A program made the position numbers and the translations under genes. A stretch of DNA of 64,000 nt from Shigella phage vB_SboS_Gloob. A model generated the notes under the pieces. It had not been told where the DNA came from and did no database searches. It saw nothing but the letters and a program-made list of their open reading frames with translations. Shown here piece by piece: positions 1 to 12,246 of this stretch. Location: the sequence record OL615011, one strand, 5' to 3'. How positions within the stretch are numbered: position 1 is the stretch's first letter; every line of letters starts with the position of its first letter.

Positions 1-2757
1 ATGAAAATGCGCAAGTCCGAGCACTTCATCCGCTCGTCGTCTTCCATTCAGGGGCAGGCGTTTAACGTCAAAATGAACGACAAGATGTTTGAGACTCTGT
101 TCTCATCATTGTATCGTTACAAAGAGGCTGCAGCCCTGCGTGAAACCACCTGTAACGCCATCGACTCCCATGGCATGCGTGATCGTATGCACCGCATGGT
201 AGCATCCCACTACGCGCCTCTCACTCCCCCTCCTGCCCGCCACAGCAAATATCTCGCGCCGAAGGGCACACGAGTTGTTGTGCATTTGCCTGATGACTTT
301 GAGCCATGGCTGGAAATCCGTGATTACGGTATCGGTCTGCCGCTTGAGAAGATCATCGGTGAAGCCATCCCAGCGCAGGAAGATGAGGTGCTGCTGGAAG
401 GCAACATGGTCGTGAAGGAAGACGAGATCCCCGATTCGGCCGAAGTCATCGGTATTCCAGGGTTCTACAATGGGTCTTTGGTGTTCCGTCGTGAAGACGG
501 CGAGATCATTCGCACGCCTGGATTGTACACCACCCTCTTCCACAGTACGAAGGAAGAAGATGATGATCAGATTGGGGCATTCGGTCTTGGCTCCAAATCA
601 CCATTTGCGGTATCGGATTCGTTCACTGTGGAAAGCCGCATGGACGGCAAACTCCATCGCTTCCTGATGTACCTGAATGCCAAGCGCATCCCAACGGTCG
701 ATCTGATCACCAAAGATCTTGAAACCCGTGATCCTAAGCCGGAAGACACCGATGAGTTCAACGGCATGACGGTGAAGATCCCGGTGAAGAACGCTCGTTT
801 CTCTGCATTCTCCGATGAACTGGTCCGTCTTGGTCGTGTTATGCGCCCTGAACAACGCCCAATTGTTGAGAACGCTTCATACCGCTTCAGCTGGGAAGAT
901 ATCAGTTATGATTTCAAGGTCAACAACACGTACATCCAGCCGAAAGGCCAGGGGAACACCCATTATGCTGTGATGGGCGGCGTGTCATACCCGATTGACC
1001 TGGACCAGCTGGACCCGGACACTGCTTCCATCATGAGCAAGTTCCCGTCGTCCTATACATTCTTTGAACTCGGCTCGCTGAACGTACCGCCGTCGCGTGA
1101 AGACCTGTCGTATGACGAATTCACGCGTGAGACGCTCTCTGAGGAGTTTAAGGGCACCGCCAATGCAATCTTGACAGAAAAGATGCGCGACCTGGAGTTG
1201 GCGTGTAAGCGTGGTCCTCTTGCCCTGTATATGGAGAAGGCAAGACTGAGCGAAATGTTCGGCAGCGGGTTCCGTAAGATGGTTGAAAAGGAATACCCGG
1301 CGGACAAGCGCTTCCATGATTCATATTACCGTTACCCGCTGCCTGTTGAGATTGATCGCGATTATGACCATACCGCGCCGTTCAATGAGCTGTCATCGCC
1401 GTTCTCTATGGAGATCTTCTATGGCTGGGGTGAGTCCAGTACCCTGACCATTTCAGAAATCCAGAAGTGGATTGATCGCGGACAGCATGTTACTGTGGTG
1501 ATCGAAGACAGTGTTCGTGCACGTAATCTGAAGATCAAGCAGCTGAAAGATACAGGGACGATGGTCATCGTGGCCAAGCCGAACACATCCTATGTCACCA
1601 AGCGCAACCAATCTAAGGACAACCCTGCGTTCAAGAATTCTCAGGCTCTCTATGATTTCTTTGAAACTTGGATCGGCAAAGAAGAAACGACGGTCGATTA
1701 TCTGTGCTTCGCTGACAAGTTCGTAGATTGGCTGAGTGCGGTGCTGGAGCCTGCTGAAGTTAAGTTCATGAACGAACTGACGTATGTCACGCCTCCGGTC
1801 ACCAAAGACCCTGGCCTGTTTCCGTTCACGTCCAGCAACTTCGACATAAAACAGTATGAAGAACTGACTGGTGAACAGATCTCGGATATTATCAACAAGG
1901 GCGAGCGCATCGTCTATATCGAAGTGTCTGGGCACGAGTGTATCCACCAAGTAATGGACAGAACGTTGACAGCTGCGGCGGCGCGGGGTATTCGTAAATC
2001 TCTGTATGAGCACGCAGTCAGTGTTGACGATGAAGGCAAGCCAGTGTATATCAGCGACATGCTGAACGTTCACAACAGGATCTTCCTGGCTCGCCGTAAA
2101 TCCGTGCCAATGATGAAGAAGTTCCCAGAAGTCTTCATCCCGATCGATGAAATCCTGAAGATCATGTTGGAAAACGTGAAGCCTATGATGGAGCGCGATA
2201 GCGCCAGGCGCATACTGGAATCATACCGCCGCATGCGCCTTGGGGCGGATCGATTAAAATACGGGAGCCGTCTGGTTCACCAGGCGTTTGGTGATGTTGA
2301 AGACGATCGTTATGGCAAATTGGTCAGCCGTTACAACAAGTTAATGAAAGTCGTGGACGATATCTTGGATGAGCAGACTGTACGTCATTACCAAAGCCTG
2401 GCGAAAGCCCCGGTTTCAATCAATGACAAGCGCCGCTTTAGCCATTTCCAGGACACAATACATTCTCTTAACGTGAATTTGTACGCCAACGAGCGTGACG
2501 AAAAGATCTTCCGTTCAGAACATCAGATGCTACAGATCTTTGGCTACGCTTCGGATGTGTTGCGGTCTCATGGATTTACACCGTTTGATATATCGAGGAC
2601 TCCGTCATTGAAAGCAAGGCGGGAAAACCGATTGACCATCGAGCGTCACCGTGTTATCCGGTTCTTGAAAGAGAATTACAAACCAAGCGCCCTGAACCCG
2701 ATTGAAAATTCTTCGGATTACTTGGACGTTATTTCAAATTCCATCATCAGGGCATAA
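1..2757 (+). CDS. rIIA: rIIA-like protein; begins at window edge, may be 5' truncated
   Basis: 918-aa ORF; N-terminal GHKL-ATPase-like motif ETTCNAIDSHG; directly followed by an rIIB homolog as in T4. Confidence 0.6.
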   Translation: MKMRKSEHFIRSSSSIQGQAFNVKMNDKMFETLFSSLYRYKEAAALRETTCNAIDSHGMRDRMHRMVASHYAPLTPPPARHSKYLAPKGTRVVVHLPDDFEPWLEIRDYGIGLPLEKIIGEAIPAQEDEVLLEGNMVVKEDEIPDSAEVIGIPGFYNGSLVFRREDGEIIRTPGLYTTLFHSTKEEDDDQIGAFGLGSKSPFAVSDSFTVESRMDGKLHRFLMYLNAKRIPTVDLITKDLETRDPKPEDTDEFNGMTVKIPVKNARFSAFSDELVRLGRVMRPEQRPIVENASYRFSWEDISYDFKVNNTYIQPKGQGNTHYAVMGGVSYPIDLDQLDPDTASIMSKFPSSYTFFELGSLNVPPSREDLSYDEFTRETLSEEFKGTANAILTEKMRDLELACKRGPLALYMEKARLSEMFGSGFRKMVEKEYPADKRFHDSYYRYPLPVEIDRDYDHTAPFNELSSPFSMEIFYGWGESSTLTISEIQKWIDRGQHVTVVIEDSVRARNLKIKQLKDTGTMVIVAKPNTSYVTKRNQSKDNPAFKNSQALYDFFETWIGKEETTVDYLCFADKFVDWLSAVLEPAEVKFMNELTYVTPPVTKDPGLFPFTSSNFDIKQYEELTGEQISDIINKGERIVYIEVSGHECIHQVMDRTLTAAAARGIRKSLYEHAVSVDDEGKPVYISDMLNVHNRIFLARRKSVPMMKKFPEVFIPIDEILKIMLENVKPMMERDSARRILESYRRMRLGADRLKYGSRLVHQAFGDVEDDRYGKLVSRYNKLMKVVDDILDEQTVRHYQSLAKAPVSINDKRRFSHFQDTIHSLNVNLYANERDEKIFRSEHQMLQIFGYASDVLRSHGFTPFDISRTPSLKARRENRLTIERHRVIRFLKENYKPSALNPIENSSDYLDVISNSIIRA

Positions 2758-2788
2758 TAGTCCTGTTAACCAACGTGGGAACTACAAG

Positions 2789-4351
2789 ATGAACAAGATT
2801 GACGAAAAGATCCTCAAGCATTTGAAGGCAGGCATGAGCCAGAGCGCAATTGCTACTCTGTTGGGCATACCCCGCTCGACTGTACAACGTGTTGCAGACA
2901 CGGAATTCGGTGTTAACCCGTTATCGCTGAAATCTCTGACCACTGAAGAGATTCAGCAGATTCAGGTGAAGAGCAAGGCTGGTGAAAGCAACCGCGCCCT
3001 GGCTGAGTTCTTTGCTGTAAGCGCCAAGACCATTGCTCGCGCTCTGCTGGTCCGGATTACTGAGGAGGAAAACAAGGTAACTGTGATCTCTCCTATCAAG
3101 CAGGAAGAGCAGGAAGTATTCGAAGTACAGCCTGGTGGAACAGCCAAAGACAAAGATGGCTCAGAATGGTATGTTGGGGCATATCTACCGAACCACAACA
3201 AGTATCTGTGTCTCACCAACGACGGTAATTTCACAGGGGCTTTCTTTGAAAAGTCTGAATTGACTCCTGTTGAAGGTGATAGTCGCGCTTTCGGTGTTGA
3301 AGCTATCGGCAAGATGGCAGAAATTTCTGTGGCGCTGTCAGAAGGTGCGGATAAAGTTCCGAGCAACGTTGAAATCAGCGTTGTGGTTGACGGGGAAACC
3401 TATCCTATTCGTGGATCCTTGGATGCCCGTCGTCGTGTTGGTTACTTCGATGCCATCCTCGGCCGCACCCTGCGCCTGGCTCTGTCTTCTGTAGAATTCA
3501 CCGTCGCTATCAAAGACGTTGAAGAAGTGGCTGGTGACAAGAAGACCAAGCAGGACTTCGGCGCGAAAGACCTGGACGTGTTCCTGAACGAACACCAGAT
3601 CCTGATTCTGCCTGACAGCGTTGTTATCGCGATTGATGGCAAGCCGGAAACGATCACCACTTCACATCCAGCATATGACCGCATCGTACAGGCGATCAAA
3701 GACAAAGATGTGAAGCTGGCATACTCGCTGATGCGCCCTCGTGATGCCATCGCGAAGTACGCTGAAGGTCTGGTAGACGTGTCTGACAACCGTGTCCGCT
3801 GGTCTGGCCATGACATCACAGGCACATCCATCGCCAAGCGCGTACTGGCGCTGATGCTGAAGGGTGACTTCCACAACCTGGACCGCATGGCGAAGTTTAT
3901 GGACAAAATGTTCCAGAACCCGTCGGCTGCTCTGGTTCAGTCTGGGCGCATCTATGAGTTCATGGCGTACTCCGACATCGAAATTGACGACGATGGTGAC
4001 ATCATCCTCTACAAATCGGTGCGCGGCAACTACATGGACAAGCACAGCAACACGATCAGCAACGCCCCAGGCACTATCGTGCGCATGGCTCGCTCATTCG
4101 TGAACGACAACAACTCCGACCTGTGTTCATACGGTCTGCATGTGTGCTCCCTGGCCTACCTGAAGGAGTGTTTCGGTTCTGTGGGACAGCGTGTCGTTCG
4201 CTGTAAGCTGAACCCGAAAGATATCGTGTCTATCACCAACGATTACGGCTCCAGTAAAATCCGCTGCTGTGAATACATGGTGTTGGATGATTACACGGCT
4301 GAGTACAACCGTCAGCACAAGTCTATTGACGTGACAGGTCTGTACAAGTAA
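2789..4351 (+). CDS. rIIB: rIIB-like protein
   Basis: C-terminal region (NAPGTIVRM...CSYGLHVCS...RCCEYMVLDDY) closely resembles T4 rIIB as recalled; N-terminal HTH-like segment; ATG at 2789 inside longer track ORF. Confidence 0.75.
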   Translation: MNKIDEKILKHLKAGMSQSAIATLLGIPRSTVQRVADTEFGVNPLSLKSLTTEEIQQIQVKSKAGESNRALAEFFAVSAKTIARALLVRITEEENKVTVISPIKQEEQEVFEVQPGGTAKDKDGSEWYVGAYLPNHNKYLCLTNDGNFTGAFFEKSELTPVEGDSRAFGVEAIGKMAEISVALSEGADKVPSNVEISVVVDGETYPIRGSLDARRRVGYFDAILGRTLRLALSSVEFTVAIKDVEEVAGDKKTKQDFGAKDLDVFLNEHQILILPDSVVIAIDGKPETITTSHPAYDRIVQAIKDKDVKLAYSLMRPRDAIAKYAEGLVDVSDNRVRWSGHDITGTSIAKRVLALMLKGDFHNLDRMAKFMDKMFQNPSAALVQSGRIYEFMAYSDIEIDDDGDIILYKSVRGNYMDKHSNTISNAPGTIVRMARSFVNDNNSDLCSYGLHVCSLAYLKECFGSVGQRVVRCKLNPKDIVSITNDYGSSKIRCCEYMVLDDYTAEYNRQHKSIDVTGLYK

Positions 4352-4365
4352 TCTTCAGTAAACCT

Positions 4366-4393
4366 ACAAGGGGGCTTCGGCCTCCTTTTCTTT
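4366..4393 (+). terminator. rho-independent terminator downstream of rIIB
   Basis: GC stem with ttcg tetraloop (aagggggcttcggcctcctt) followed by T-run. Confidence 0.6.
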
Positions 4394-4402
4394 GAGGTCG
4401 AT

Positions 4403-4708
4403 ATGTTAACCACTGATGTCTACTTCAAATATGCGCGACAGACGTATGGCTCGCATCGTGTGACAGACAAATTCTTGATAGACTCCTTCCAGTTTGAAGG
4501 GGAGATGAGGGAATACTCACACAAACAATTCCCACCCCGTGAAGTTCATGGTGACCAGTTCGTGAAATTGTTCTGTCGCTGCGGCGGTTGTGACTTCACA
4601 GATGATGGGTATGCAATGCACGTATACTGCTGCAATTGCTGTGGTAAATACATAACAGTCTATAGGAGAACCAATCATGGCGAAGAAACCCGAAACCAAG
4701 AAAGTTGA
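4403..4708 (+). CDS. hypothetical Cys-rich protein
   Basis: 101-aa ORF with CRCGGC...CCNCCG cysteine cluster; overlaps next gene start. Confidence 0.4.
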   Translation: MLTTDVYFKYARQTYGSHRVTDKFLIDSFQFEGEMREYSHKQFPPREVHGDQFVKLFCRCGGCDFTDDGYAMHVYCCNCCGKYITVYRRTNHGEETRNQES

Positions 4709-5524: not shown

Positions 5525-6312
5525 TAGCACCGGAAGTTGTTCGCAACAAACCGGAAACCGAGCGTCTGCACACCGTGACAGGCACTGCCAAGGGTTGGGA
5601 AAAGACCAGTCTTAACCAAGACCCTGACGAGATCCTGACCGAGTGTAAAGGCCTGGATACACTTCTGACCAAGAGCAATCTGCAGGCTGATGGCGTGACC
5701 AAAGTTGATCCAACCAAGCCTATCGGCTTCGAGATCTCTTACGAAATCCACGACCCAAGCGCCGTGCTGACCACTGGCCTGACCATCACCCCTGCGACTG
5801 CTGGTGGTGAAGTCGGTCAGGTTGTTGAACTGCTGGCGACCGTCGCTCCGGCGAACGCGACCTACCAGGGTGTCAACTGGTACTCTGGTGACATCACCAA
5901 AGCTGTACACATCGGCGGTGGTAAATTCAAGCTGCTGGCTCCTGGTTCTGTGACTGTGTACGGTGTTACCATCGAAGGTGGCCACACTGACTCTACCGTC
6001 ATCACAGTGGCGGGTGCGCTGGCTCTGTCTACTGATCTGGCTGCTTCTCAGGATGTAACAGCAGGTGAAGACGCAACCTTCACCATCGCTGCTACAGGCG
6101 GCACTACCCCATACACATATGCTTGGTACTTCTCTGATGTCCCTGGTGGTGAAGGTGTGGTGATCGATGCTGGCGCTAACGCCACTGCTGCAACTGCGAG
6201 CCTGGTTATCACCGCAGTTGATGCCGCAGACGAGGGTGAGTACTGGTGTGTTGTTGAAGACGCCGATGGCCACTCTGTGACCTCTACCCGTTGTGAAATG
6301 GCTGTGGTCTAA
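5503..6312 (+). CDS. Ig-like domain protein (Big_2-like plus I-set-like), possible Hoc-like surface protein
   Basis: GGAGGAAACC RBS before ATG 5503; tandem Ig-like segments (YQGVNWYSGD...VTVYGVTIEGG; DATFTIAATGG...DEGEYWCVVEDADG). Confidence 0.6.
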   Translation: MPTITVLVAPEVVRNKPETERLHTVTGTAKGWEKTSLNQDPDEILTECKGLDTLLTKSNLQADGVTKVDPTKPIGFEISYEIHDPSAVLTTGLTITPATAGGEVGQVVELLATVAPANATYQGVNWYSGDITKAVHIGGGKFKLLAPGSVTVYGVTIEGGHTDSTVITVAGALALSTDLAASQDVTAGEDATFTIAATGGTTPYTYAWYFSDVPGGEGVVIDAGANATAATASLVITAVDAADEGEYWCVVEDADGHSVTSTRCEMAVV

Positions 6313-6314
6313 TC

Positions 6315-6545
6315 ATGAAGGGCTTCCAGGACTTTCTTGAAGACTCGGCAGCCCCTGGAACCACGACCGCCGATGTGGGGAAACCCGAAGGCGGTATGGT
6401 GAAAGAGCCTGTCAAGAAACCCAAGGATCTTGAGGAAGAACAAGAGCAGACCGACTTCCAAAAGATCTTTGGGAATATCTTCAAAGACCTCGACCTGAAG
6501 AATGCACGAAGGTGGAACTTCAGGACAGGCAAATATGAAGACTAA
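6315..6545 (+). CDS. small protein with capsid-targeting-sequence-like N-terminus (MKGFQDFLED)
   Basis: N-terminus matches the MKxFQDFLTE paralog family in this window and resembles T4 internal-protein CTS MKTYQEFIAE. Confidence 0.6.
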   Translation: MKGFQDFLEDSAAPGTTTADVGKPEGGMVKEPVKKPKDLEEEQEQTDFQKIFGNIFKDLDLKNARRWNFRTGKYED

Positions 6546-8551: not shown

Positions 8552-10465
8552 ATGTCTGATAAAATTGATATTGAACGCAAGTACAAGAAGCTCACGCACG
8601 TCGAGCATATCCTCCTTCGCCCAGAGCGTCATCTGGGCAGCATCCGTTCGTCTGTTGGTACGGTGTGGGTGTACGACCCAACCAAAGACCAAGTCATTTT
8701 CCGTGACAACTTTGAGTACTCCCCCGCCCTGATCAAACAGTTTGATGAAATCATCACCAACTGTGTTGACCACAGCAAGACGCCTGAGGGTAAATCCCTG
8801 ACGGAAATCACTGTCACGGTTTCCCCGATGAACGGTCAAATCATCGTTGCCGACAACGGGGGTATCCCTGTTGTGAAGCACGGTGTTACCAACGAGTGGT
8901 TGCCTGAGATGCTCTTCGGCTCCCTGTATGCAGGCAGCAACTTCAACGACGAAGACGAAGAGTACAACAACCAGAAGTCTGGTGGGCAGAATGGCGAAGG
9001 GGCTTCGCTCGTCAACGTGTTCTCAAAGTGGTTCCGTGTTGCTACCAGTGATGGCAAGAAGTCTTATGCCCAGCTGTTTGAAGACAACATGAGCAAGAAG
9101 TCTAATCCGGTCATCAGCAATACGCCGAAAGAGTTCGGCACCACCATCGCCTGGATTCCTGACTATGCTCGCCTGGGTGTCAAAGGGCTTGACCAGAACA
9201 ACCTGCTGATGATCTATCGCCGCGCGTTTGAAGTGGCTGCGTGTAACCCGCGCCTGAAGGTTGTGCTGAACGGGAAGCAAATCCGGATTGACCGCTTTGG
9301 TCACTTCGTTGATTACTTCCATGCTGGTTCCGCTGTTGATGAATCTGGTGAATGGTCGGTTGCTGTAGCCCCTTCATCCGGTACGTTCATGCACGCATCA
9401 TACGTGAACTCTATTGCCACCCACATCGGTGGTCCTCACGTTGATTATGTCGCCGACCAGATCGTGGCTGCGATTCGTCCTCAGCTGGTGAAGAAGTTCA
9501 AGACCGAGCTGAAACCTGCCATGATCAAGAACCACATGTCCTTGTTCATCGCCGCCGACATCAACAACCCGCGCTTTGACAGCCAGACCAAGGAGCGCAT
9601 GACCACTCCTGTAAGCCAGTTCGGTACGTCGTACAAACCGAGTGACAAACTCATCCGCAAGGCGCTTGAGTTCGTTATGGCTGGTCTGAGCAAAGAACTG
9701 GCTTCCCTGCGCAATGAGCAGGATGATGCTGAGTTTGAAAAGGCCAAGAAGGATATCAGCAAGCGGGATTATCGTGAGATTGAGAAGTATTACCCGGCGA
9801 CCGCCCGTGGTGACCGCAGCGGTTGCTCCCTGTTGCTGACAGAGGGTGATAGCGCCTCCAATCCTATCCTGAACGCCCGTGACACCAAAAAGATCGGATT
9901 GTTCCCGCTTCGTGGTAAGTTCATCAACTGCCTGAACGCCCCGCGCACAAAGGTGATGAACAATGAAGAGTTCAAGAACCTGTGTACGATTCACGGCGGC
10001 GCAGTGCCCGGTCAGCCACTTGACATCAGCCGCTACCCACAGACTGTTGTGGCTACCGATGCGGACGATGACGGCATTCACATCCGTGGGTTGTTGATCA
10101 CCCTGTATTGCACCTACTGGCCGGAGTACGTCCGTCAGGGCAGGCTGAAGCTCCTGCGCACCCCTTACATGCGTGTATGGTGTGGTAAGGTGATGCATGA
10201 GTTCATGAACAACGCCGAGTATGAGGAGTTCCTGAAGACGCCTGATGCCAAGAAGATCACGAAGAAGAAATATCTGAAAGGTCTTGGCGGTAACAGCACT
10301 GAAGACTTCAAACGTATTCTAAACAACCTGGATGCGTATACTACGACGGTCACGCTGGACGATGGCTACCAACAGTCACTGAAGAATGGCTTCGGTGATG
10401 AGGCCGCCGATTACCGCAAAACCTGGTTTAGCGATGTTTGCCTGTTTGAAACTGAGGATGAATAA
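8552..10465 (+). CDS. type II DNA topoisomerase large subunit (GyrB-like; ATPase plus TOPRIM fused, T4 gp39+gp60 equivalent)
   Basis: GHKL ATPase motifs (ITNCVDHS, DNGGIPV) and TOPRIM motif (LLLTEGDSA, DADDDGIHI) in one 637-aa ORF. Confidence 0.85.
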   Translation: MSDKIDIERKYKKLTHVEHILLRPERHLGSIRSSVGTVWVYDPTKDQVIFRDNFEYSPALIKQFDEIITNCVDHSKTPEGKSLTEITVTVSPMNGQIIVADNGGIPVVKHGVTNEWLPEMLFGSLYAGSNFNDEDEEYNNQKSGGQNGEGASLVNVFSKWFRVATSDGKKSYAQLFEDNMSKKSNPVISNTPKEFGTTIAWIPDYARLGVKGLDQNNLLMIYRRAFEVAACNPRLKVVLNGKQIRIDRFGHFVDYFHAGSAVDESGEWSVAVAPSSGTFMHASYVNSIATHIGGPHVDYVADQIVAAIRPQLVKKFKTELKPAMIKNHMSLFIAADINNPRFDSQTKERMTTPVSQFGTSYKPSDKLIRKALEFVMAGLSKELASLRNEQDDAEFEKAKKDISKRDYREIEKYYPATARGDRSGCSLLLTEGDSASNPILNARDTKKIGLFPLRGKFINCLNAPRTKVMNNEEFKNLCTIHGGAVPGQPLDISRYPQTVVATDADDDGIHIRGLLITLYCTYWPEYVRQGRLKLLRTPYMRVWCGKVMHEFMNNAEYEEFLKTPDAKKITKKKYLKGLGGNSTEDFKRILNNLDAYTTTVTLDDGYQQSLKNGFGDEAADYRKTWFSDVCLFETEDE

Positions 10466-10466
10466 G

Positions 10467-10913
10467 ATGGAATACCCGCTAACTCATCAAATGCAGCCAA
10501 CAAAAGACACGTGCATGTCAACGTGTCTGGCGATGTTGCTTGGTCGCCCGGTTGCTGAGGTTGCTGAAACATGGCATGAAAGTTTCGCAAATTGGGAAAC
10601 CACGATTGGTGACGTTCTTTGTATGGAAGGGGTTCCGTTCTTGTGTGGGAAGGGAGTCAACCAAACTGTCACCATCTATCATGATTATGTCTACCTTCTT
10701 TGCGTGCCAAGTCCAGCAACGCCAGGGATATTGCATCAGATCATTATGGATACCCGAGGCGACAAAGTTGTCATACATGACCCACTGAAGGGTACTGGCA
10801 AAAGATATTACACCCTAGATGAAGACGACAAATCTCCTCTGGCGGTAAAACTTGAAACTTGGATTGTAGACTACATTGTCGACCCGTATGAAGTGGGAGG
10901 TTATCGTGGGTAA
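10467..10913 (+). CDS. C39-like papain-fold cysteine peptidase domain protein (putative)
   Basis: HQMQPTKDTCMSTCLAMLLG resembles the Q...DCGxACLAM active-site region of C39 peptidases; later His residues (YHDYV, VVIHD); GAGGA RBS. Confidence 0.5.
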   Translation: MEYPLTHQMQPTKDTCMSTCLAMLLGRPVAEVAETWHESFANWETTIGDVLCMEGVPFLCGKGVNQTVTIYHDYVYLLCVPSPATPGILHQIIMDTRGDKVVIHDPLKGTGKRYYTLDEDDKSPLAVKLETWIVDYIVDPYEVGGYRG

Positions 10914-10914
10914 G

Positions 10915-12246
10915 ATGGTTGCCAAGAGCATTACTGTAACGGACTTTGTCAACACTGACCATAAGCAGTTTTCTGTGGTCAACAGCATCCGTCAAATCCC
11001 TCAGCTGATTGACAGCCTCAAGCCGAGCCAGCGCAAGATCCTTTTCGCTGCTCTTGAGTACAACAAGGAGGAGATCGTTGACCGCCTTGGTATGTTCGCC
11101 GCCGCCCGGACCAACTACAAGTCTGGTGGTGAGAACATGAGCGGCACTATCGTGAACATGGCTCAGGGGTTCCCAGGCACGAACAACATCCCGTACTTTG
11201 ACCGCGACGGCCAGTTTGGTTCTATCATGGGGCGCGACGCGTCGTCGGCACGTTACATTTCGGTGGCTGTATCTGATGTTATCCGCAAGATCTTCCGCAA
11301 GGAGGATGAGGGCATTTTAGAATACAATTACCTTGGTGAAGAAAGACTGGAGCCGAAGTTCTTCCTGCCCATCCTACCCATGTTCCTGGTGAATGGGATC
11401 AATGGTATCGGCACCGGATATTCCACCGACACCCCGTGTCATTGCGTTAAGTCCGTGCTCAGTGCCCTGAGAGCGCTTCTCCGTGGCGAAGACCCGAAAG
11501 ACTTAAAACCGTACTGGAACGGCTACAAAGGGGAGACAGGCTATACTGAGGAAGGAAGAGCATACAGTCGCGGCATCTTCCGTCGCGTCAATGCCACCAC
11601 CCTGCATATCACCGAAGTCCCAGTGGGTTGGTTCGCCAAGACCTATGAGACCAAGGTGTTGCTGCCTCTGTACAAGGCTGGTATCCTGACCGAGTACGCC
11701 AACGACACGACCGAAGATGGCTGGGATATCACGGTTGTATTCAAGCGGGGTGAACTCTCTAAGCTGAGTGATGAACAGGTTGAGCAGATGTTCAAGTTGT
11801 ACTCTGCTAACAAGCCTGTTTGGACAGCATGGGATGAAGACGGGGTAATCCATCGTTATGCGGGCTGGCAGGATATGTTGCTGCCGTTCTTCAATTATCG
11901 CCTGTCACGGTATGAAGACCGTCGCCAGTATCTGTTGAAGGACATGGCAGACAGGATCCGCAAGCTGGGTGACCGGGCGGTGTTCATTGAATGGGCGACG
12001 CGTGTTGATCTCCGCCAAAAGATTGACGTGCTGAAGTCTCTGTTCATGCAGGACTATCCGGACTTTGGCGGTGATCTTGACGAGTTGTTCAAGATGCCGC
12101 TGTCGTCTATTACTCTGGACGCCCGTGAGCGCCTACTCAAGCAGATTGAGAACCTTGAAGCACAACACAAGGAATTAAGTAAGAAAGAGGACATCGATCT
12201 TTACACTGAAGACCTTGATGACCTTGAAAAGGCTCTTGGCCTATAA
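10915..12246 (+). CDS. type II DNA topoisomerase medium subunit (GyrA-like, T4 gp52-like)
   Basis: N-terminal region (LKPSQRKILFAALEY...ARYISVAVS...LPMFLVNGINGIGTGYSTD) resembles T4 gp52; start taken as ATG after upstream stop. Confidence 0.8.
   Translation: MVAKSITVTDFVNTDHKQFSVVNSIRQIPQLIDSLKPSQRKILFAALEYNKEEIVDRLGMFAAARTNYKSGGENMSGTIVNMAQGFPGTNNIPYFDRDGQFGSIMGRDASSARYISVAVSDVIRKIFRKEDEGILEYNYLGEERLEPKFFLPILPMFLVNGINGIGTGYSTDTPCHCVKSVLSALRALLRGEDPKDLKPYWNGYKGETGYTEEGRAYSRGIFRRVNATTLHITEVPVGWFAKTYETKVLLPLYKAGILTEYANDTTEDGWDITVVFKRGELSKLSDEQVEQMFKLYSANKPVWTAWDEDGVIHRYAGWQDMLLPFFNYRLSRYEDRRQYLLKDMADRIRKLGDRAVFIEWATRVDLRQKIDVLKSLFMQDYPDFGGDLDELFKMPLSSITLDARERLLKQIENLEAQHKELSKKEDIDLYTEDLDDLEKALGL

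Follow-up and report, generated by a model that had tools for sequence, protein, structure and literature searches.

Peptidase domains of the C39 group (PF03412; MEROPS C39, clan CA) cleave after Gly-Gly, and group members are recognized by fusion to, or a shared operon with, an ATP-binding cassette (ABC) exporter together with a gene for a double-glycine-leader substrate. In CvaB, the residues Cys32 and His105 of this domain are essential by mutagenesis, and in HlyB the C39-like domain has lost the catalytic Cys and serves in substrate binding only. Here we analyzed an open reading frame (ORF) for a 148-amino-acid protein in a 64,000-nucleotide stretch of DNA from Shigella phage vB_SboS_Gloob (record OL615011), to which we refer as the window. 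The window corresponds, coordinate for coordinate, to the left part of Shigella phage Ag3 (phiSboM-AG3, FJ373894.1), a ViI-like phage of the family Ackermannviridae, genus Agtrevirus, in which the ORF, orf00015, lies between the genes for the large and medium (gp52) subunits of topoisomerase II. We regard this ORF as an optional cassette that likely encodes a stand-alone papain-clan cysteine peptidase, active in the cytoplasm and nearest to the C39 double-glycine domains, which probably makes specific cuts, perhaps in a host protein or peptide.

An initial annotation, made from the sequence of the window alone, had proposed a stand-alone C39-like peptidase from the peptide HQMQPTKDTCMSTCLAMLLG, corresponding to residues 7 to 26, with candidate His residues further on. 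To place this motif in a family context, we aligned 60 homologues from annotated phages and a large protein collection, with identities to the query of 23 to 97%; 58 are full-length, and the other two are N-terminally truncated gene calls. His90, Asp105, and Pro106 are invariant in all 60 sequences, Gln10 and Cys16 are kept in every full-length member, and Cys20, Leu21, Ala22, Met23, Ser82, Gly109, and Tyr115 are near-invariant. The order and spacing of Gln, Cys, His, and Asp in the phage protein (10/16/90/105) are like those of CvaB-type domains (26/32/105/121). In particular, the Q-x5-C spacing of Gln10 and Cys16 equals that of Gln26 and Cys32 in CvaB when the sequence is read directly, which, together with the invariance of Gln10, suggests that this residue forms the oxyanion hole.

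We then compared the family alignment with 106 PF03412-annotated domains of the CvaB/MchF/RaxB type by using hhalign. The two profiles matched with an E value of 1.5e-5 and a probability of 79.8% over 95 columns, covering residues 4 to 109 of the phage protein. In this alignment, Cys16 is paired with CvaB Cys32, Cys20-Leu-Ala-Met with Cys36-Leu-Ala-Met, His90 with His105, and Asp105-Pro with Asp121-Pro, so that the conserved Cys/His pair anticipated in the initial annotation falls, with the Asp, on the CvaB triad. The family motifs QPTxxSCxxTCLAM and DPxKG parallel HQTETAECGLACLAM and HDPARG in CvaB, and the elements C-x3-C-L-A-M and D-P-x-x-G, within a domain of ∼140 to 150 amino acids, are shared with the C39 domains of PCAT1, ComA PEP, LahT150, and CvaB. 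Two local differences were noted: hhalign places a 2-residue gap at Gln10 and pairs Gln8 instead with CvaB Gln26, and the position following the catalytic His holds Gln in 46 of the 60 phage sequences but Phe in CvaB. Thus, homology to genuine C39 domains is detected at the profile-profile level, with a moderate rather than overwhelming signal.

The predicted fold agrees with this assignment. An AlphaFold2 model computed on the 60-sequence alignment had a predicted local distance difference test score of 90.2 and a predicted template modeling score of 0.87. In the secondary structure assigned to the model with DSSP, Cys16 is the first residue of the helix spanning residues 16 to 25, His90 lies on the strand at 89 to 95, and Asp105 follows directly after the strand at 102 to 104; as modeled, this placement is the arrangement of the papain fold. 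The four best structural matches were all C39 domains, and the next in rank were the pseudomurein endoisopeptidase PeiR (8.7, with 20% identity), a C39-like protein from Bacillus anthracis (8.7), Alr0975 (8.3), and staphopain (8.0). Foldseek likewise returned PCAT1 as the best match (probability 1.0, E value of 4.8e-3). Against predicted viral structures, the significant matches (E ≤ 0.001) were uncharacterized or unnamed entries, with a “Peptidase C39 domain-containing protein” from a Bacillus phage as the one exception. The outcome that would have told against the initial annotation, namely, the lack of any papain-fold relative and of a Cys/His dyad, was therefore not what we found. As the motifs in the sequence and the top-ranking structures both point to the C39 domains, we regard these as the closest group.

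Several observations weigh against this reading. Peptidase_C39_2 of Pfam (PF13529) matched residues 2 to 26 only, with an E value of 0.13 and 13.2 bits compared to a cutoff of 24. The best E value for PF03412 was 0.05, obtained with 1 of 10 diverse family members, and the score was below the family threshold. The hhalign probability is 80% and not >95%, and a regular-expression scan covering every ORF of the 64-kb window revealed no strict double-glycine leader. Literature searches returned no functional study of any family member. The remaining single-sequence searches of Pfam, NCBIfam, and the PDB (with phmmer) gave chance-level E values of 0.1 to 1.3 only, for example, to poxvirus A26 and an FxLD lanthipeptide, and PHROGs placed the protein in phrog_4049 (E value of 4.5e-53), which is listed there with no assigned function. 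A sole relaxed leader candidate at 43989 to 44192 was unconvincing and was rejected. Of the hidden Markov model searches proposed in the initial annotation, those with the single sequence stayed below threshold, whereas the profile-profile comparison succeeded. A lone motif match would be weak; it is the family alignment, the profile-profile comparison, and the fold comparison that raise the C39 match beyond chance. Enzymes of the PCAT type further differ from the phage protein in context, since the latter is phage encoded, presumably cytoplasmic, and neither fused to nor adjoining an ABC transporter, with no bacteriocin or leader-peptide gene nearby; identities to C39 structures are 10 to 15% in structural alignments. 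Membership in C39 is therefore incomplete, as the protein falls below the Pfam gathering scores and is linked neither to an ABC exporter nor to a gene for a double-glycine-leader substrate, but it has the papain-like fold with Cys at a helix N terminus, the Gln/Cys/His/Asp order, and the profile-profile homology. The protein is most fittingly placed in clan CA as a divergent branch of the C39-like group, one that stands alone and is borne by phages. A stand-alone C39-like protein is also known from B. anthracis (3erv), but that one is bacterial.

The C39 assignment is not new for the family, as it is already in databases for orthologues. Kuttervirus proteins in a UniRef cluster of eight (Salmonella phages Maynard, SeF6a, bering, and EP75) are named “Peptidase C39 domain-containing protein,” as is a homologue from the Vequintavirinae, and phrog_4049 appears under the C39 label of SeF6a in a table of a 2022 Salmonella-phage paper (PMC9409062). 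The Kuttervirus orthologues belong to the same family, are 61 to 67% identical to the Ag3 protein, and have their genes in the corresponding gap between the topoisomerase genes. Their annotation differs from that in Ag3, where GenBank FJ373894.1 gives the product of orf00015 as “conserved hypothetical phage protein,” and the Ag3 genome paper mentions both topoisomerase genes but not orf00015. Our analysis replaces this conserved hypothetical label with an enzymatic prediction that has support and specifies the catalytic residues. The coordinates of these residues and of the other features discussed are collected in Table 1.

Table 1. Coordinates in the window of the predicted peptidase gene, its putative catalytic codons, and adjoining features
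Feature	Position	Strand	Basis
Predicted stand-alone C39-like (papain-fold) cysteine peptidase gene; 148 amino acids; phrog_4049; Ag3 orf00015	10467..10913	+	
Gln10 codon CAG, predicted oxyanion-hole residue	10494..10496	+	58/58 invariance; spacing as in C39
Cys16 codon TGC, predicted nucleophile, motif C-x3-C-L-A-M	10512..10514	+	58/58; hhalign to CvaB Cys32
His90 codon CAT, predicted catalytic base	10734..10736	+	60/60; hhalign to CvaB His105
Asp105 codon GAC, predicted third triad residue, motif D-P-x-x-G	10779..10781	+	60/60; CvaB Asp121 in HDPARG
Left copy of TAAGATGG: large subunit stop, G, ORF start	10463..10470	+	Ag3/P46FS4 junction comparison
Right copy of TAAGATGG: ORF stop, G, gp52 ATG	10911..10918	+	Ag3/P46FS4 junction comparison
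GAGGA Shine-Dalgarno element, 8 nucleotides 5′ of the ORF ATG	10454..10458	+	Sequence; P46FS4 comparison
Topoisomerase II large subunit gene, fused gp39+gp60 type, 637 amino acids; upstream flank	8552..10465	+	Pfam, GenBank
Topoisomerase II medium subunit gene (gp52); downstream flank	10906..12246	+	Pfam, annotation, sequence

We next examined the junction in related phages with a 1.6-kb query (9900 to 11500), which matched 284 phage records, essentially all from the Ackermannviridae. The peptidase ORF was present in 38 of these, and in the others the two topoisomerase genes abut, in agreement with the insertion postulated in the initial annotation. The insert-less records listed, among them Vi01, PhaxI, Dickeya and Klebsiella phages, and the Agtrevirus P46FS4, matched in two pieces spanning ∼1,151 to 1,153 bp compared to 1,601 bp, and the difference of 448 bp (1,601 versus 1,153) recurs. 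In P46FS4, the flanks are 98.9% identical to those of Ag3 and carry no insert. Its junction, GAGGATGAATAAGATGGTTGCC, consists of the large subunit stop, a G, and the gp52 start, and in Ag3 this same sequence is split by an insert of exactly 448 bp, with the 8-bp direct repeat TAAGATGG at both boundaries. The two copies of the repeat are each made up of a stop, a G, and a start, and the insertion therefore duplicates the translational-coupling junction of the topoisomerase genes. The cassette also carries a GGAGG near its 3′ end that restores a ribosome-binding site for gp52.

The carriers do not share a single allele or junction. Se-J and AV101 have alleles 91 to 95% identical to that of Ag3, with left junctions that form TAATG and TGATG overlaps, whereas in most Kuttervirus carriers the allele is the 61-to-67%-identical one, the right junction forms an ATGA overlap, and gp52 differs at its N terminus. 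Salmonella phage Se-J is classified as a Kuttervirus, yet it carries the Ag3-type allele (94.6% amino acid identity), and the other Kuttervirus carriers differ from it in the gp52 N terminus as well (MTTITVTDF versus MVAKSITVTDF). This suggests either exchange between genera or two separate acquisitions. More generally, the differences in allele and junction among carriers imply that the site has been used more than once or that an old cassette has been lost repeatedly. The ORF has a G+C content of 46.8% compared to 52% in the flanks, and the ratio of nonsynonymous to synonymous substitution rates (dN/dS) among the Ag3, Se-J, and AV101 alleles is 0.08 to 0.17, which shows that the peptidase protein is under purifying selection. 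In Dickeya phage phiDP10.3 (KM209270.1), the same gap holds instead a gene (926 to 1447 of the locus retrieved) for a 173-amino-acid protein that matches the Pfam AP2 domain below threshold (E value of 1.2e-6) and in which no HNH domain was detected. AP2 domains are present in some homing endonucleases. The view in the initial annotation that this gap attracts insertions is thus confirmed, but its description as a T4-type feature needs correction, since the phage is a ViI-like member of the Ackermannviridae and not strictly T4-type.

By tblastn, the family was found in 152 phage records, including Ackermannviridae, Queuovirinae (Seurat, 9g, and Vibrio phages), Vequintavirinae, Pseudomonas Samunavirus, a jumbo Erwinia phage, and others. 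An exhaustive profile search retrieved 1,135 clusters (50% identity) at E ≤ 0.001, and among the best 150 of these nearly all proteins are 135 to 160 amino acids long and stand alone. Outside the Ackermannviridae, the gene lies within arrays of small early or unannotated genes, away from topoisomerase. Homologues were also present in seven Pseudomonas assemblies on contigs of 12 kb to 1.3 Mb; one annotated locus places the gene (5989 to 6465 of that locus) in the nin region of a lambdoid prophage, a classic location of accessory genes, between the genes for Replication protein P and NinG, and the family therefore occurs in temperate as well as virulent phages. Every context inspected was phage or prophage DNA. 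An all-versus-all comparison of neighbors at 11 loci from different phage groups revealed no partner or substrate gene conserved across lineages. We note that Henunavirus-type members (e.g., at 3995 to 4567 of one locus) are ∼190 to 195 amino acids long, with a C-terminal extension of ∼45 residues that is missing from the 148-amino-acid form.

Taken together, the fold, the purifying selection, and the invariance of the catalytic residues indicate that the protein is probably an active cysteine hydrolase. In the mechanism that we propose, the nucleophile would be Cys16, at the N terminus of the first helix; the adjoining sheet would supply His90 and Asp105 to complete the triad, and Gln10 would form the oxyanion hole. 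As a single-gene optional cassette that may be cotranscribed and translationally coupled with the two topoisomerase genes, the peptidase would seem to be made along with replication proteins. No signal peptide, membrane segment, or wall-binding domain was found in the 148 amino acids, and the absence of the first two, combined with the location in an early/replication operon, suggests a cytoplasmic site of action during infection. If the enzyme behaves as C39 enzymes do, it most likely cleaves specifically, at one or a few sites that end in small residues of the Gly-Gly type. The gene can be dispensed with inside a genus, travels by itself, and lacks a partner conserved among phages, and a host protein or peptide is therefore a likelier substrate than one from the phage; cleavage could benefit the phage under some conditions, such as host takeover or counter-defense, and we put forward such an accessory role only tentatively.

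The family would thus represent a compact, probably active protease, as judged from sequence and model, in ∼1,100 clusters from virulent and temperate phages of gammaproteobacteria. When near-identical phage genomes differ by the gain or loss of an accessory gene, that gene often serves as a weapon in phage-host conflict. A much more far-reaching proposal is that the family is a widespread counter-defense or host-takeover protease, i.e., a cytoplasmic Gly-Gly peptidase or deconjugase that inactivates a component of host immunity and moves as a single-gene cassette between unrelated phages. Its importance would be much greater if this were true, but we regard the proposal as quite unlikely in this specific form. 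Candidate targets would then include ubiquitin-like or CD-NTase conjugates (Bil, type II CBASS) or another conserved gammaproteobacterial host protein, and the data speak neither for nor against any one of them. None of the PADLOC defense models matched the peptidase. Ksap1, the Avs2 trigger, was also considered and set aside, being an unrelated protein of 74 amino acids. Natural pairs that differ by exactly this gene, namely, Ag3 with it and P46FS4 without it, with the 98.9% identity of their flanks, make the function directly testable.

PeiR was the only PDB sequence found with the family profile (E value of 0.61), with aligned parts that span the Cys motif and DPAKG, and this raises the alternative that the protein is an isopeptidase or amidase, either a wall endoisopeptidase of the PeiW/PeiR kind (C71) that aids lysis or a deconjugase of ubiquitin-like or CBASS-type conjugates. 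Cleavage after Gly-Gly is common to C39 enzymes and ubiquitin-like proteases, and in the Seuratvirus VogelGryff the gene lies ∼1 kb upstream of an endolysin-holin-spanin cluster. However, the PeiR match is not significant, and the C39 domains rank above PeiR among the structural matches. PeiW, PeiP, and PeiR (MEROPS C71) come from methanogen phages and prophages, whereas the hosts here are Gram-negative and lack pseudomurein. PeiR has 228 amino acids, most of them outside the 148-amino-acid single domain, and its extra part consists of N-terminal wall-binding repeats. The phage protein shows neither significant similarity to C71 enzymes nor such repeats, and the lack of a wall-binding domain, signal peptide, or membrane segment likewise argues against a role at the wall. 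The gene resides in the replication operon in Ag3 and among early genes or in a nin region elsewhere, not in lysis cassettes, and the PADLOC result points to no defense system. We therefore judge an isopeptidase or amidase to be unlikely. A papain-fold modifier of host proteins that is not proteolytic, such as a glutamine deamidase (OspI, Cif), a transglutaminase, or an acyltransferase, is very unlikely, because the Foldseek matches to such proteins are weak (probability of 0.02 to 0.2, E > 0.4) and because C-x3-C-L-A-M and H-x14-D-P-x-x-G are motifs of C39 and not of deamidases.

The sporadic presence of the ORF among near-identical genomes (38 of 284), the AP2-domain gene at the same site in phiDP10.3, and the lower G+C content would also fit a selfish insertion whose cargo brings the phage no benefit, or a C39-like domain that, like that of HlyB, binds without catalysis. 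Yet inactive domains lack the catalytic Cys, as does the C39-like domain of HlyB (3zua), and the phage family keeps the full set of Gln, Cys, His, and Asp; a dN/dS of 0.08 to 0.17 indicates selection on the protein. The pattern of presence and absence does resemble that of homing-endonuclease and other mobile cassettes, but no nuclease domain (HNH, GIY-YIG, LAGLIDADG, etc.) was detected in the ORF in Pfam, PHROGs, or NCBIfam, and the fold is that of a peptidase. A silent or purely selfish element is thus highly improbable. In sum, the initial annotation was largely right, with its observation confirmed and its interpretation supported, although for the C39-like label this support comes from the family alignment, hhalign, and the fold and not from the Pfam C39 models.

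We also considered a functional tie between the peptidase and topoisomerase. In most relatives, the identical topoisomerase genes have no such ORF between them, and homologues in other phages are not near topoisomerase genes; the tie was therefore rejected, and nothing connects the two. The upstream protein contains HATPase_c, DNA_gyraseB, Toprim, and TOPRIM_C domains by Pfam and is therefore a large subunit of the fused type of a T4-like topoisomerase II, and the downstream protein of 443 amino acids matches DNA_topoisoIV (E value of 4.9e-65). The large subunit gene ends with a TAA at 10463 to 10465, and a lone G (10466) separates this stop from the ATG of the ORF at 10467 on the + strand, so that the start 2 nucleotides past the upstream stop had been correctly reported. 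A 175-amino-acid version starting with the ATG at 10386 was rejected, since every homologue begins at the Met encoded at 10467. The ORF ends with a TAA at 10911 to 10913 that is followed by G-ATG of gp52. The start of gp52 is ambiguous, being either the GTG at 10906 annotated in GenBank, which has GGAGG 5 nucleotides upstream and overlaps the ORF by 8 nucleotides, or the ATG at 10915, which is the start in insert-less phages. The GAGGA upstream of the ORF is the element that serves gp52 in those phages. As a scan of 8552 to 12246 revealed no promoter-like or terminator-like site on the + strand, the large subunit gene, the peptidase ORF, and gp52 look like one transcription unit.

Two further observations concern the region. 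On the minus strand, a terminator-like hairpin with an 8-bp stem and a T-rich tail lies within the ORF at 10505 to 10528, over the codons for Cys16 to Cys20; it is probably due to chance, since such sites are fewer in the region than expected from shuffled sequences. In Salmonella phage vB_Sen_ST2 (Kuttervirus), an HNH/NUMOD3 homing-endonuclease gene (2266 to 3114 of the locus retrieved) is located directly upstream of the large subunit gene, where Ag3 has none, a contrast that again shows the readiness of the locus to take up insertions.
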